A DNA stretch of 38,621 bases from a virus (taxonomy: Duplodnaviria > Heunggongvirae > Uroviricota > Caudoviricetes), in IMG/VR virus record IMGVR_UViG_2541047830_000013; one strand, written 5' to 3'. Below the pieces are notes generated by a model. That model was given only the letters and a program-made list of their open reading frames with translations, was not told the DNA's origin and did not search any database. Each line of letters starts with the position of its first letter. Positions within the stretch are counted from its first letter, which is position 1. The position numbers were made by a program, and so were the translations under genes. Positions 2,641 through 37,625 of this stretch are shown one piece after another.

Positions 2641-2928
2641 ATGACCAAAGACCATGCACAAGGTGTATTTATCCGTTTTATTGATTTTCGCGGTGAACTG
2701 TTATTACGTGCATCCGCTATTGACGGAGTAACTCCGGCGGGTAAAAACGGAGCCGACGAAGCCACTTACGTTTATCTGAACGGCACGCGACTGCTTGTGG
2801 AACTTCCGTACCAGACCGTACGAGAAATCATTAGCGAAGCTGAAAAGGCACGCCAGGTTAATGGCGATGAACCCTATATCGAAATTATTTGTATGGATTC
2901 AGAAGCTGAAATACAGAAAGCAGATTAA
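2641..2928 (+). CDS. Hypothetical early-region protein (95 aa)
   Basis: ATG 2641 is the first Met after the upstream stop; the longer track ORF from 2527 overlaps the previous gene. Confidence 0.5.
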   Translation: MTKDHAQGVFIRFIDFRGELLLRASAIDGVTPAGKNGADEATYVYLNGTRLLVELPYQTVREIISEAEKARQVNGDEPYIEIICMDSEAEIQKAD

Positions 2929-2939
2929 AGGGCGTTGTG

Positions 2940-3182
2940 ATGGGCAAAGAATATAAAACTCTCATTAACAAAGCACTTGAGCGTTTTTATTTTCGCTTAA
3001 GTGCATCAGGCGCTCATGCTGAACGTGCGGCCCGTGACTCATTGACCAGAGCAATCCGAAGTCTGTATGACGTGGCTTTTTACGCTGATGATCTGGATGC
3101 ACTTAACGAACTTTCCGAGCTGATCTGTGCCGCAGAGTGCGGGGAACATATTGAACCGTATAAGCTGGGGAATATCGCATGA
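2940..3182 (+). CDS. Hypothetical early-region protein (80 aa)
   Basis: ATG 2940 (track GTG 2937); stop overlaps the next start as ATGA. Confidence 0.5.
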   Translation: MGKEYKTLINKALERFYFRLSASGAHAERAARDSLTRAIRSLYDVAFYADDLDALNELSELICAAECGEHIEPYKLGNIA

Positions 3183-4119: not shown

Positions 4120-4240
4120 GAAACCAGAACATGCACACACAAAAAAACCGCTTGCCATGCCGCAATCAGTCAGGTTACATTTCCGCTGCACCTCACAAAA
4201 CGGGTGCCGGGTTTCGCAGCCTGCTGACTACACAAGCGCA

Positions 4241-4262
4241 CAACCGCGCCAGCGGTTTTTTT
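4241..4262 (+). terminator. Rho-independent terminator-like hairpin (aaccgc-gcca-gcggtt followed by a T7 run)
   Basis: Stem 4242-4247 / 4252-4257, then ttttttt to 4262; lies in a 320-bp stretch with no convincing ORF. Confidence 0.5.
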
Positions 4263-4441
4263 GTGCGTACTGTATTGCCACGTTTTTTTCGCGTCAGAAT
4301 TATGGCGGGGCGTACGGGGCCGACTTCGGTCGGGCCGGGTTCTTGTGTAGCCGGTACTGCGAACCTCGTACGTCTCGCCACCCACAGTTTCGCAGCTCTG
4401 GATGGTGAGTTTTCACAACTTACTACACAAGGGGCCACACC

Positions 4442-35272: not shown

Positions 35273-35533
35273 ATGTTCCGTTGTCCGCTTTGTGGCGCAT
35301 CTGCCCGTATCCGCACAAGTCGTCCGGAAAATGATTCAAACACCGTGCGGCAAAAGTATTACCAGTGTAACAACCTGGAATGCGGCGTATGCTTCTCAAC
35401 ACTGGAAGCCTTCCATAAATTCACATCAAAACACGCCTCCGCCGTTCACTCTTCAGAAGGTATCCCGTGGCATGAGCTGCCAGCTTCACACAGGGGAAAC
35501 AATCAGATGAGTTTGCCTTTACCTCAGAACTAA
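35273..35533 (+). CDS. ogr: Late gene activator Ogr (zinc-finger)
   Basis: MFRCPLCGA...YQCNNLECGVCF gives a Cys4 arrangement matching P2 Ogr; AGGGAGG RBS. Confidence 0.85.
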   Translation: MFRCPLCGASARIRTSRPENDSNTVRQKYYQCNNLECGVCFSTLEAFHKFTSKHASAVHSSEGIPWHELPASHRGNNQMSLPLPQN

Positions 35534-35723
35534 CAGGCAGAATTGCCGGAGTAACAAAAAAGCGATAGATTACGCGCGGGTGCCTTTCGGCTGATGGTCG
35601 GAGGGAATACCCGATGGCCGGATGTGGAAAGGCCCCGGAAAACACTTTTGTTTAACCGAGGCCCTAACCGTCTACCCTAAGCAAGTGATAGGTTAGCGCC
35701 TCCCCGAAAAAGGAGCAAGCGCT

Positions 35724-35864
35724 ATGTCGCAAAAATCGCTTACGGCCATCACGTTCTGCGTGACGGTAATCCTCATCATCTGGATGCTGCACGGTTCGCT
35801 GTGTGAAATACGGATGAGCTTCTGGGGAGCGGAGTTTGCGGCGTTCTTACAGTGTAAGCAGTAA
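35724..35864 (+). CDS. Hok/Gef-family type I toxin (46 aa)
   Basis: MSQKSLTAITFCVTVILIIWMLHGSLCEIRMSFWGAEFAAFLQCKQ: one TM helix then SLCE...AAFL.C, the Hok-family pattern; AGGAG 8 nt upstream; below ORF-track cutoff. Confidence 0.7.
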   Translation: MSQKSLTAITFCVTVILIIWMLHGSLCEIRMSFWGAEFAAFLQCKQ

Positions 35865-35874
35865 GGAAACCGCG

Positions 35875-35894
35875 ACGGGGGAGTAATCCCCCGT
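35875..35894 (+). other. Stable hairpin just 3' of the hok-like ORF (acggggga-gtaa-tcccccgt)
   Basis: 8-bp GC-rich stem; consistent with a structured hok mRNA 3' end. Confidence 0.45.
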
Positions 35895-36126
35895 CAATCG
35901 GTTGCTAGGGTAAGGTCGATAAGGCACCCTATCTCACAGCTCTAAATGCCAAAATTCCATGAAACTGTGGGATTTTTGCATCACATACTGATACAGACCA
36001 GCCCTTCTATATGCCTCACTCTATACCAGCTAATCAATTGACACTTATCAATAAAAATAAATCTGATAAAATCAAAATGTTTTGTAACAAATATCAACTC
36101 GTATTAATCCAAAGGAGGCGGATTAC

Positions 36127-36459
36127 ATGGCATTAATCAAATGTCCTGAATGCCAGAAAGAGGTGAGCGATTCAGCATTGTATTGCCCTGCTTGTGGTAA
36201 ACAACTGCAAAAACTTAAGCGTTCATTTTTTGGACGGATCATTAAGTGGGTTTTTATATTATTTAATATTTTTATGATCTATACGCTTTTAGTTGGACTA
36301 GGAGGCACTAGTGAAATAATAAATAATGCCACATCCGATGCCGAAAAAGCCGGTGCAGTTATTGGTACAGGCTTAGGTTTAATTACCATTGGAAGCTTAT
36401 GGGTTATTGGCGATATCATTATCGGAATTTTAGTATTTCTTACTAAACCAAAGGGATAA
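36127..36459 (+). CDS. Zinc-ribbon membrane protein (110 aa)
   Basis: N-terminal CPEC-x13-CPAC zinc ribbon then two hydrophobic helices; strong AAAGGAGG RBS; AT-rich. Confidence 0.6.
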   Translation: MALIKCPECQKEVSDSALYCPACGKQLQKLKRSFFGRIIKWVFILFNIFMIYTLLVGLGGTSEIINNATSDAEKAGAVIGTGLGLITIGSLWVIGDIIIGILVFLTKPKG

Positions 36460-36463
36460 TAAA

Positions 36464-37357
36464 ATGAAAAATATAATTTTTTCTATAGGTGCATCATTTA
36501 TATCAATTAGTGTACTGCCTGTTCACGCAGCAACTGAACATAAGAACTTCAATGCAGTACTCCAGTGCCGAGCAATAGAAAATAATAAAGACAGACTTTC
36601 TTGTTACGATAAGTCAATACAACCGACTCGAACGAAAGTTGCTGAAAAATTCGAAAGCAGAGATCAATGCCCTGATGAGAAAGATGATGATAGACGTTTA
36701 TCTTGTTATGATCGTTTCTTTTCTCCAACATTTACTCCATCTGTAAACTCAAAATCTAAAACGGAAAAGCCAGTAACAACAGAGGCTCAGCAACCAAATC
36801 TTTCTGAGATATCTAAATGTCGTGCAGAAAATGATAAAGAAGCTAGACTAAACTGCTACGATAAACTATTCCCACAGGATAAAATCGTTCAAGCTGAATC
36901 AAAATTAGAGAAAGCCACAGATGTAGGAAAATGGCACACATCCATTACTACATCGCCAATTGATGATTCGAAAAATGTAATTTTATCGTTAGAAAGTGAT
37001 GATTATATCAGAACTCCATTTGGAGAAGCGGTTACTCCTACTCTTTTTATAGCTTGCCGAGAAAAGAAAACCGAAGTATTTCTTAGTTGGGATGTATATT
37101 TAGGCCTTGAACAAACCAGCATGCTTTATCGCCTTGATAAACAGAAAGCAGTTGAGCGAAACTGGCTAGTATCTACAGATACAAAGGCTGTTTTTTATAA
37201 AGGTAATGACATTGATTTCATCCGAAAACTAGCCAACTCAAGCAAAATGTATACAAAAATAACGCCTTATAATGAGAGCCCCGTAAGTGCAACTTTCAAT
37301 TTAAACGGCCTGTCAAACGCGCTAAAACCGCTTCAAGCTGCTTGTAACTGGAAATAG
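36464..37357 (+). CDS. Secreted protein with three Cys-containing repeats plus a C-terminal domain (297 aa)
   Basis: Signal peptide ending VHA-A; three repeats of the form C-x8-RLSCYD-x-F/I (QCRAIENNKDRLSCYDK, QCPDEKDDDRRLSCYDR, KCRAENDKEARLNCYDK); 5 nt after the upstream gene. Confidence 0.6.
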   Translation: MKNIIFSIGASFISISVLPVHAATEHKNFNAVLQCRAIENNKDRLSCYDKSIQPTRTKVAEKFESRDQCPDEKDDDRRLSCYDRFFSPTFTPSVNSKSKTEKPVTTEAQQPNLSEISKCRAENDKEARLNCYDKLFPQDKIVQAESKLEKATDVGKWHTSITTSPIDDSKNVILSLESDDYIRTPFGEAVTPTLFIACREKKTEVFLSWDVYLGLEQTSMLYRLDKQKAVERNWLVSTDTKAVFYKGNDIDFIRKLANSSKMYTKITPYNESPVSATFNLNGLSNALKPLQAACNWK

Positions 37358-37440: not shown

Positions 37441-37459
37441 GTGGTCACTGCGTGGACAC
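37441..37459. repeat. attR core, right copy of the 19-bp direct repeat
   Basis: gtggtcactgcgtggacac; single mismatch to 11-29; marks the phage/host junction. Confidence 0.6.
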
Positions 37460-37625
37460 GCGCTGACATAAATCCTTTTACATCAATAAATTAAGTCATC
37501 ATTTTTTTCATCAACAAGGATTTTCACGTTTGTGTTACCTGTATGAGACGAGAGTTAACCAGACAAGTGTGCCATAATCTCGCGGCCAGGCATACTTGCG
37601 AAGATTTCAGGTATAAGGATACGTA

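Follow-up and report, generated by a model that had tools for sequence, protein, structure and literature searches.

A probable hok/sok-type toxin-antitoxin locus with no R1-type mok frame, carried beside ogr in a P2-like prophage of Escherichia coli

Introduction

Post-segregational killing is the paradigm set by the hok/mok/sok (parB) locus of plasmid R1. In R1, the GAGG box serves as the SD sequence of mok, whose AUG lies at positions 116-118, and mok must be translated as far as the hok SD; toxicity is lost when mok terminates prematurely ahead of the hok start (PMC9841398). Substitutions that destabilize the stem after the stop codon render the R1 mRNA less stable (PMC9841398). Defence against phage T4 by R1 hok/Sok was not reproduced in a 2026 report (PMC13047441).

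Relatives of this locus are also carried by phages. The hokW-sokW locus of the Stx2 prophage Sp5 increases phage release about twofold after mitomycin C treatment (Takada et al., 2021; PMC8621323), and HokW is produced only once RecA-dependent induction has occurred (PMC8621323). A survey of Hok diversity found prophages to be enriched in hok and described tandem hok 'islets' (Escalera-Maurer et al., 2026; bioRxiv 10.1101/2025.08.07.668861). The catalogue from that survey deliberately leaves mok, Sok and mRNA structure unanalysed, and the ogr-adjacent site in P2-like phages goes unmentioned in it.

Here we analyse a locus in a 38,621-nt stretch of DNA (the window) that constitutes a P2-like (Peduoviridae) prophage of E. 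coli. This locus is very probably a hok/sok-type type I toxin-antitoxin system, carried as prophage cargo directly downstream of ogr. As an identification it adds little to existing annotation and to the Hok catalogue. Only one feature is of some interest, namely the consistent lack of mok from a Hok subfamily that is phage-borne, conserved and under selection.

Genomic context and distribution

The ORF upstream of the locus (35273-35533) encodes an Ogr/Delta zinc-finger protein (PF04606, 52.5 bits), in keeping with the placement downstream of ogr given in an earlier note on this DNA. The element is bounded by direct repeats of 20 bp, TTTTCATCAACAAGGATTTT, with attL beside pdxB (strain MDR_56) and the attR core at 37505-37524 before flk. 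Thus, hok and the two other cargo genes located between ogr and attR, which encode a zinc-ribbon membrane protein and a VasI/TagO-like protein, lie inside the prophage. Repeats of GTGGACAC are present at the int end and at 37446-59. An att core overlapping the 3′ end of hok was considered, given that homology to phage P88 stops near 35939, but only an 11-mer is shared there and the real attL/attR repeat is the one at 37505-24; position 35939 is a boundary between cargo modules. Among the phage records, PhiR44_2 ends at the same point as the window prophage (attR), and 'Phage 500465-2' is a prophage call that runs on into host flk and yfcJ.

In viral contigs the arrangement is nearly constant. 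Specifically, hok adjoins ogr directly in 78 of 80 near-identical contigs, and the distance from the end of ogr to the hok ATG is 193-195 nt in 77 of the 80 and 226 nt in one more. These 80 matches are 98-100% identical at the protein level, and sequence diversity was drawn instead from Hok-encoding contigs. P2-like prophages of Salmonella that are integrated elsewhere also have the order D-ogr-hok-host, and lambdoid prophages carry the same Hok subfamily at their tail-fibre/Lom end. Of 5426 complete E. coli genomes, 1750 contain similar DNA. Many E. coli chromosomes match the segment 35540-35960 at 100% identity, and P2-like phage or prophage records such as P88, P884B11, Chuche and PhiR44_2 match it at 94-98%. 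A literature search combining hok, ogr and prophage found nothing, and PADLOC returned no match for Hok or the neighbouring cargo proteins.

The Hok peptide

The ATG-initiated ORF downstream of ogr encodes MSQKSLTAITFCVTVILIIWMLHGSLCEIRMSFWGAEFAAFLQCKQ (Table 1). The earlier note had attributed Hok family character to this 46-residue peptide and a good ribosome-binding site to its gene, and both attributions hold. The peptide matches the Pfam family HOK_GEF (PF01848) with 30.1 bits against a cut-off of 22, with residues 7-44 aligned to profile positions 5-42 of 42, and the ORF is preceded by AAGGAG at 35710-35715, which leaves a gap of 8 nt between GGAG and the ATG. An identical protein is annotated by PGAP in RefSeq as 'Hok/Gef family protein' (WP_000078920.1), and the copy in phage P88 is annotated as 'MokW-like host killing; hok/gef family protein'. 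A protein search yielded 68 relatives in E. coli, Shigella, Salmonella and Klebsiella, and all those named by their sources are Hok/Gef proteins.

The peptide shares its Pfam family with chromosomal HokA-E of E. coli K-12, and HokA is its top NCBIfam match, but it falls far below the curated thresholds of the HokA equivalog (NF007290; 35.8 against a cut-off of 89) and of the Hok subfamily (NF007279; 23.6 against 73). The peptide is therefore not an orthologue of HokA-E and belongs to a separate Hok subfamily. R1 Hok has 52 residues, six more than the window peptide, and the two share the motif SLCEIR...E(V/F)AAF. HokW of Sp5 is also distinct, being a HokD-like protein of 51 residues (MKQQKAM...) from a lambdoid phage, whereas the window Hok is of the 46-residue type. 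An Stx2a-phage locus, L003, that is 82% identical to the window is a hok locus separate from hokW-sokW.

The window peptide appears verbatim in the Hok survey, in cluster 72, as sequence 1628 of the supplementary alignment files (bioRxiv 10.1101/2025.08.07.668861). Two other members of the cluster, 72_1621 (V16A, one residue from the window peptide) and 72_1589 (the Stx/lambdoid-phage form), were cloned for toxicity assays in that study, the text of which names only three constructs as non-toxic on overexpression, with neither 72_1621 nor 72_1589 among them. The locus is thus already known: it is annotated in RefSeq, catalogued in the Hok survey, and represented there by a one-residue variant reported toxic.

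For comparative analysis, homologous loci were collected from genomes, viral contigs and encoding contigs and reduced to 33 sequences with 60-96% identity to the window. The predicted mRNAs of these homologues were aligned for the tests of pairing and covariation described below. The hok ORF is intact, with 46-47 codons, in all 88 sampled copies from E. coli, E. albertii, Salmonella and Klebsiella. Comparison with the window gives dN/dS values of 0.11-0.39 for the complete ORF and of at most 0.54 for codons 1-34, with dS among the compared sequences reaching about 1 or more. These values indicate that the 46-residue Hok/Gef-family membrane peptide is under purifying selection.

The hok leader and its RNA elements

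We used the hok region of an R1-type IncF plasmid as the comparison locus. The R1-type hok/mok/sok locus and the window present the same order of elements, namely a −10 hexamer, a G-rich tac element at +1, ucb, the GAGG box, the target hairpin, the anti-SD/SD hairpin, hok, a stem-loop, fbi and a terminator (Table 1). The window leader is shorter, placing the hok AUG at +147 rather than at +174 as in R1, and the window locus resides on a prophage, whereas that of R1 resides on a plasmid.

A match between the window leader and Rfam model RF01794 begins at the inferred mRNA 5′ end (35578) and covers model positions 1-157 of 157 on the plus strand (43.0 bits, E 2.9e-8 in a 751-nt search). This match came only from a permissive search. 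A run at the gathering threshold gave no hok/sok match, and the window score of 43 lies under the gathering score of 59. Thus, the Rfam search named in the earlier note as a check delivers a full-length alignment at a sub-threshold score. RF01794 is labelled 'sok antitoxin', and its match to the plus strand was initially an oddity that the R1-type plasmid control dispels. In the control the model scores 87.2 bits on the hok strand, with an alignment that opens 1 nt ahead of the inferred mRNA 5′ end (GGCGCUU) and closes at the hok AUG. With a match that reaches from the start of the tac region to the hok start codon in this orientation, RF01794 really covers the sense-strand hok leader. Relatives of the window score 42 bits (L003) and 38 bits (L092). 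With its full-length match at 43 bits, compared with 87 for the R1-type control, the window sequence reads as a divergent hok leader of the R1 kind.

Table 1. Positions in the window, strand and supporting basis of each feature of the locus.
Feature	Position	Strand	Basis
hok promoter-like site: −35 TTGCCG 35543-48, 17-nt spacer, −10 TAGATT 35566-71	35543..35571	+	read from sequence
Predicted full-length hok mRNA, ~400 nt	35578..35978	+	5′ end by homology, 3′ end by terminator-like hairpin
tac element: core GGGUGCC[UU] 35578-86, extension to 35592	35578..35592	+	complementarity, 33-sequence pairing
Interrupted mok-frame ORF, 28 codons, stop UAA 35678-80	35594..35680	+	relative frame same as R1 mok
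Predicted Sok-like antisense RNA, ~57 nt: 5′ tail ~19 nt, hairpin 35665-35629, then UUUC	35627..35683	−	−21.2 kcal/mol, z −2.9
ucb-like box AAGGCCCC	35629..35636	+	pairs with GAGG box (closed form) or tac (open form)
GAGG box and Sok-target hairpin: GAGGC 35658-62 with GCCUC 35698-702	35658..35702	+	Rfam consensus structure
Sok promoter-like site: −35 TTGCTC 35718-13, 17-nt spacer, −10 TAACCT 35695-90	35690..35718	−	conserved hexamers
Anti-SD/SD hairpin (GCGCCUCC ... GGAG CAA GCGC)	35696..35723	+	folding; outer helix 99.4%, inner 89.4% paired
hok toxin gene, 46 aa	35724..35864	+	Pfam PF01848, RefSeq annotation, dN/dS, intact ORF in sampled copies
3′ stem-loop after stop codon	35868..35903	+	14 pairs, 5 with compensatory changes
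fbi element: core AAGGCACCC 35921-29 plus extension	35914..35929	+	complementarity, conservation
Terminator-like hairpin, A and U runs flanking	35946..35981	+	−13.9 kcal/mol, z −3.0

The sequence gggtgcctt at 35578-35586 is the exact reverse complement of aaggcaccc at 35921-35929, as the earlier note had proposed for a tac/fbi pair. By itself, this 9-nt repeat is only mildly unusual, since 15 of 500 dinucleotide shuffles of 35540-35960 (3%) contain a perfect inverted repeat that is 9 nt or longer and whose arms are separated by 250 nt or more. Its weight comes from position and conservation. Specifically, the 7-bp core keeps its pairing in all 33 homologues, with the three variable pairs changing only to G-U or U-G, and four pairs of the extension exhibit compensatory changes. 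The minimum free energy (MFE) fold of 35578-35935 (358 nt) closes the 5′ end onto the 3′ end with z = −6.7, an outcome that bears out the folding check named in the same note. The strong hairpin that it described after the stop codon is likewise present, formed by GACGGGGGA and UCCCCCGUC at 35874-35895 within the longer stem. The R1-type locus carries GGCGGGC-GCA-GCCCGCC at the matching position, and by analogy this stem-loop may protect the 3′ end of the processed mRNA.

The other elements of the closed structure are equally well maintained. The helix between ucb and the GAGG box (alignment columns 54-60 with 84-90) is 100% paired and includes two compensatory pairs. Together, tac-fbi, ucb:GAGG box, anti-SD:SD and the stem-loop after the stop codon are paired in 98.5% of cells of the 33-homologue alignment, compared with 26-50% when the partners are slid as a control, and compensatory changes affect 11 pairs across the closed structure; the 33 sequences are related, and many of the compensatory cells trace to few lineage splits. 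Helices of the open form are also preserved, with tac:ucb 97.7% paired, the GAGGC:GCCUC target hairpin 95.6% paired in the 33 sequences, and the open-form helices as a set able to form in 96.5% of cells. For both alternative helix sets, in which ucb pairs with the SD box or with tac, pairing is possible in 96-100% of cells. In a Salmonella copy (L103:2361-2713), columns 56, 88 and 128 have changed together such that both partners of the GAGG box are kept, a single instance that looks like the coupled covariation expected for alternative folds.

Promoter-like and terminator-like sites and the antisense strand

Conservation among the homologues has a sharp onset at the −10-like TAGATT/TAGAAT and ends about 6 nt past fbi. 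The −10 hexamer (TAGATT/TAGAAT/TAAATT) and its 6-nt gap to GGGTGCC are kept in nearly all 33 homologues; in the window the gap ends at G35578. The R1-type plasmid has TATGAT, 6 nt and GGCGCTT at the homologous site, compared with TAGATT, 6 nt and GGGTGCC in the window. A consensus promoter scan of the locus called none, with both the hok and the Sok sites under threshold. No terminator-like hairpin was found in a scan between the ogr stop (35533) and the hok promoter-like site. The sole 'terminator' that the scan reported in the locus is on the minus strand and is the stem-loop after the stop codon read in reverse. Downstream of fbi, both the window and the R1-type locus carry a hairpin and a U-run, and the P88 and Salmonella copies have unrelated hairpin and U-run terminators at an equal distance from fbi. 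Stx-phage copies have a terminator-like sequence, GGGTTTTTT, upstream of the hok promoter-like site. The interval 35575-35935 assigned to the locus by the earlier note covers its core but is slightly too short, given promoter-like hexamers that begin at 35543 and a terminator-like hairpin at 35946-35981.

On the minus strand, all 33 homologues carry a pair of hexamers of the form TTGCTC/TTGCCT/TTTACT/TTGACT, 17 nt, TAACCT/TATCCT. The R1-type plasmid has TTGCGC-17-TATCCT at the homologous place, compared with TTGCTC-17-TAACCT in the window, where the hexamers match 6 of 12 consensus positions and the consensus scan was negative. Transcription from this site is predicted to start about 7 nt downstream of the −10 hexamer and to proceed through a hairpin that is followed by a short U-tract (UUUC). 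The predicted RNA has a 5′ end that complements the target-hairpin loop of the open fold. From these features we infer a Sok-like RNA of about 57 nt.

Energetics of the open and closed folds

The closed fold of the full-length RNA has a calculated energy of −159.4 kcal/mol, compared with −150.3 kcal/mol when the open helices (tac:ucb and GAGGC:GCCUC) are forced, a bias of 9.1 kcal/mol toward the closed state. When the RNA is truncated to the stem-loop after the stop codon, the bias is 1.0 kcal/mol (MFE −135.5 versus open −134.5 kcal/mol). The open fold engages GCCUC with GAGGC, so that only about 2 bp remain on the SD. A switch between alternative folds of this kind fits the R1 model (PMC9841398).

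The expectation that truncation frees the SD without constraint is contradicted by both the MFE folds and the pairing probabilities. In unconstrained folds of the full-length, truncated and Sok-blocked RNAs, the SD remains paired with a probability of 0.96-0.98. A freed SD is present only in the centroid structure and in the constrained 'open' fold, which lies 1 kcal/mol above the MFE of the truncated RNA. Furthermore, the hok AUG is held in a conserved long-range helix with an invariant 3′ part of the coding region. Given that the SD is paired in all unconstrained states and that the AUG lies in a helix, the thermodynamic model alone does not explain how hok translation would start.

The missing mok frame

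The frame corresponding to R1 mok is where this locus departs from its model, a difference that the earlier note overlooked. The AUG of R1 mok corresponds to AAC/AAG in the window, which has no mok start after the GAGG box, and a start codon at this place is absent from all 33 copies. An ORF in the mok frame that opens at AUG 35594 stops 32 nt short of the hok SD, and does not constitute a mok of the R1 type. No mok-frame ORF is present in 67 of the 88 sampled copies, and none is present in the P88 and Stx-phage copies. The frame is open to 70 codons in four copies (L021, L042, L074 and L085), and some close relatives have open mok-frame ORFs of 61-92 codons with starts at various positions.

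Two candidate substitutes for mok were rejected. A 24-codon in-frame ORF at 35622-35696 is not conserved, and its AUGs are missing in Salmonella copies. Similarly, a mini-ORF reading GUG-AUA-GGU-UAG is present in only about two-thirds of the copies and has no SD. Because no mok frame reaches the hok SD, Hok translation is probably either placed directly under the anti-SD switch or very inefficient. The simplest reading is that this subfamily can do without mok and that the anti-SD would be controlled directly.

Discussion

The earlier proposal of a hok/sok-like type I locus is supported by the Pfam match, the RF01794 alignment, the conserved helices, the minus-strand hexamer pair and hairpin of the Sok type, and existing annotations. 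By homology to R1, a weak promoter would produce a stable mRNA, about 400 nt in length and held closed by the helix between tac at its 5′ end and fbi at its 3′ end. Slow trimming of the 3′ end back to the stem-loop at 35868-35903 would remove fbi, and with it the bias of about 9 kcal/mol for the closed fold. This would permit tac to pair with ucb and GCCUC to pair with the GAGGC box, such that the Sok-target loop is exposed and the hok SD is mostly rid of the anti-SD. A short, unstable antisense RNA (from about 35683 to 35627 on the minus strand) would bind this loop, and either the duplex would be destroyed or translation would be closed again; with Sok covering 35628-35683, the anti-SD would be free to pair with the SD again. 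Once Sok is no longer synthesized, Hok would be made and would damage the inner membrane.

Could the parts of this locus be a coincidence, or the remains of a system that no longer functions? Short ORFs are common and the 3% of shuffles with a comparable repeat show what chance can do, but a functionless pairing of a small ORF with a 9-nt inverted repeat is exceedingly improbable, refuted as it is by the Pfam match, the full-length Rfam alignment, conservation and covariation across genera, purifying selection and existing annotation. A more serious alternative, although one that we consider unlikely, is that the ancestors of the locus depended on mok, that the mok frame has been broken (by the UAA at 35678-80 in the window), that Hok is never made, and that the RNA elements persist through recent common ancestry. 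Such a silent relic is not easily reconciled with dN/dS values of 0.1-0.5 at dS up to about 1 or more, with an intact ORF in 88 of 88 copies over four host groups, or with compensatory changes that maintain the helices. What speaks for it is the state of the mok frame, which ends early in the window and is lacking from 67 of 88 copies, together with the loss of R1 toxicity upon premature mok termination (PMC9841398) and the predicted pairing of SD and AUG in every fold. However, mok configurations vary among close relatives whereas Hok is conserved, a pattern that points to a dispensable mok rather than to a dead Hok.

If the hok/sok-type system is active, candidate roles drawn by analogy are help with lysis and release at induction, retention of the prophage, and defence. 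Coupling of hok to late transcription is conceivable, because no terminator was found between ogr and hok. The same parts might then serve mainly as a helper of phage lysis and release rather than as an addiction module, with late-operon read-through, or the disappearance of Sok upon induction, raising Hok late in the lytic cycle and speeding membrane damage. We hold this to be possible but somewhat doubtful. The approximate doubling of release by hokW-sokW of Sp5 (PMC8621323), the contiguity of hok and ogr in 78 of 80 viral contigs, the open path from the ogr stop to hok +1, and the T4 defence of R1 hok/Sok that could not be reproduced (PMC13047441) are all consistent with such a role, but hokW encodes a different Hok from a lambdoid phage. 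The hok locus also has a conserved promoter-like site of its own, which in the Stx-phage copies is preceded by the terminator-like sequence noted above.

Returning to the reading of the locus as a hok/sok-type system that has dispensed with mok, we can offer a tentative extension, to which we assign less than an even chance. The 46-residue loci of cluster 72 may represent a naturally mok-independent branch of hok, in which GAGGC no longer acts as the SD of mok and would serve instead as a decoy for the anti-SD GCCUC. In such a branch, the tac/fbi/ucb switch and Sok would gate the hok SD directly, and with the locus fixed beside ogr in P2-like phages, late read-through may tie Hok to lysis.

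This abundant prophage subfamily keeps every RNA element of R1 except mok, and its peptide is under purifying selection. It therefore provides a natural test of whether coupling to mok is essential or only one solution to the control of hok. Moreover, its fixed site after ogr and inside the att boundary would make it a tractable system for learning what use a type I toxin is to a temperate phage, whether in retention, in help with lysis, or in defence.

Ends and cargo genes of the prophage

A 20-bp direct repeat, TTTTCATCAACAAGGATTTT, is present in the window and, in strain MDR_56, on the side of the prophage nearer to pdxB (L105 1917-1936). This repeat defines attL and attR, with the window copy serving as the attR core. 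Because the prophage limits are set in this way, the zinc-ribbon membrane protein and VasI/TagO-like protein genes are assigned as phage cargo. A second copy of the motif found at the 3′ end of int, CACTGCGTGGACAC, lies at 37446-37459, and the two copies may be arm-type sites for Int. The DUF3800 gene lies in an island of 31-34% GC inside a late operon of 54% GC and has the appearance of a cargo insertion (moron). PADLOC returned no match for the DUF3800 protein, the zinc-ribbon membrane protein or the VasI/TagO-like protein. In the early region, the isrK and C4 antisense RNA pair constitutes a P1/P7-type C4 immunity RNA module within this P2-like prophage.

Features of the prophage and hok start codons of Salmonella arrays
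Feature	Position	Strand	Remarks
isrK	4188-4262	+	early region; Rfam gathering-level, 64 bits
C4 antisense RNA	4298-4385	+	early region; Rfam gathering-level, 83 bits
DUF3800 protein (PF12686), 389 aa	33871-35040	-	strand opposite to neighbours; between gpD and ogr
Zinc-ribbon membrane protein	36127-36459		AT-rich, 35-36% GC; between hok and attR
VasI/TagO-like protein	36464-37357		AT-rich, 35-36% GC; between hok and attR
attR core	37505-37524		direct repeat TTTTCATCAACAAGGATTTT
hok ATGs, L103/L104	2005, 2503, 3001		Salmonella array
hok ATGs, L098/L099	3001 and 3491/3495		Salmonella array

The hok locus as a module

Sequence shared between the window and P88-type phages ends about 6 nt past fbi, the 3′ element that pairs with tac (window 35936-35940; phage P88, L002, from 3395). 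Beyond fbi, the terminator hairpin and downstream cargo differ from lineage to lineage. On this comparison, the hok locus behaves like a self-contained module that has a recombination boundary immediately past fbi.

In Salmonella, complete hok loci also occur two or three in a row, as tandem arrays with a period of ~498 bp. One of these arrays (L103/L104) lies directly 3′ of ogr, and the copies within one array have diverged from each other. Tandem hok "islets" have already been described in the Hok preprint (bioRxiv 10.1101/2025.08.07.668861). At the end of a Salmonella lambdoid prophage (L094/L095, ~2830-3000), the 46-aa hok ORF is intact and fbi is kept, while tac is absent and unrelated DNA occupies the place of the hok 5′ region; this copy may be truncated at its 5′ end, deregulated or dead. 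Separately, the enterobacterial sRNA STnc540 gives a strong Rfam match (172 bits; L092 3295-3492, minus strand) just 3′ of a Salmonella hok locus, adjoining an ihfA-like gene near the prophage/host junction.

RNA constraint and the strand of RF01794

In our alignment of 33 predicted hok mRNAs, the Salmonella sequence L103:2361-2713 changes jointly at columns 56 (C>U), 88 (G>A) and 128 (C>U), and the GAGG box can therefore still pair with ucb in the closed form and with GCCUC in the open form. These joint changes, in a single sequence, exemplify coupled covariation for the alternative folds. The final 12 hok codons (window 35784-35864; columns 262-297) are almost invariant in nucleotide sequence across genera, with few synonymous changes, and form a helix with the sequence around the start codon (AUGUCGCAAAAAUCGC with GCGGAGUUUGCGGCGU); here, coding constraint is overlaid by RNA-structure constraint.

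The Rfam model RF01794, named "sok antitoxin (CssrC)", matches the hok-encoding strand in both the homologous locus L108 (432-603, plus strand) and the window (35578-35737, plus strand), in each case over the stretch that begins with the tac region and runs up to the hok AUG. What RF01794 models is therefore the hok leader, with the Sok complement in it, and not the antisense RNA itself. Strand assignments based on RF01794 can mislead.
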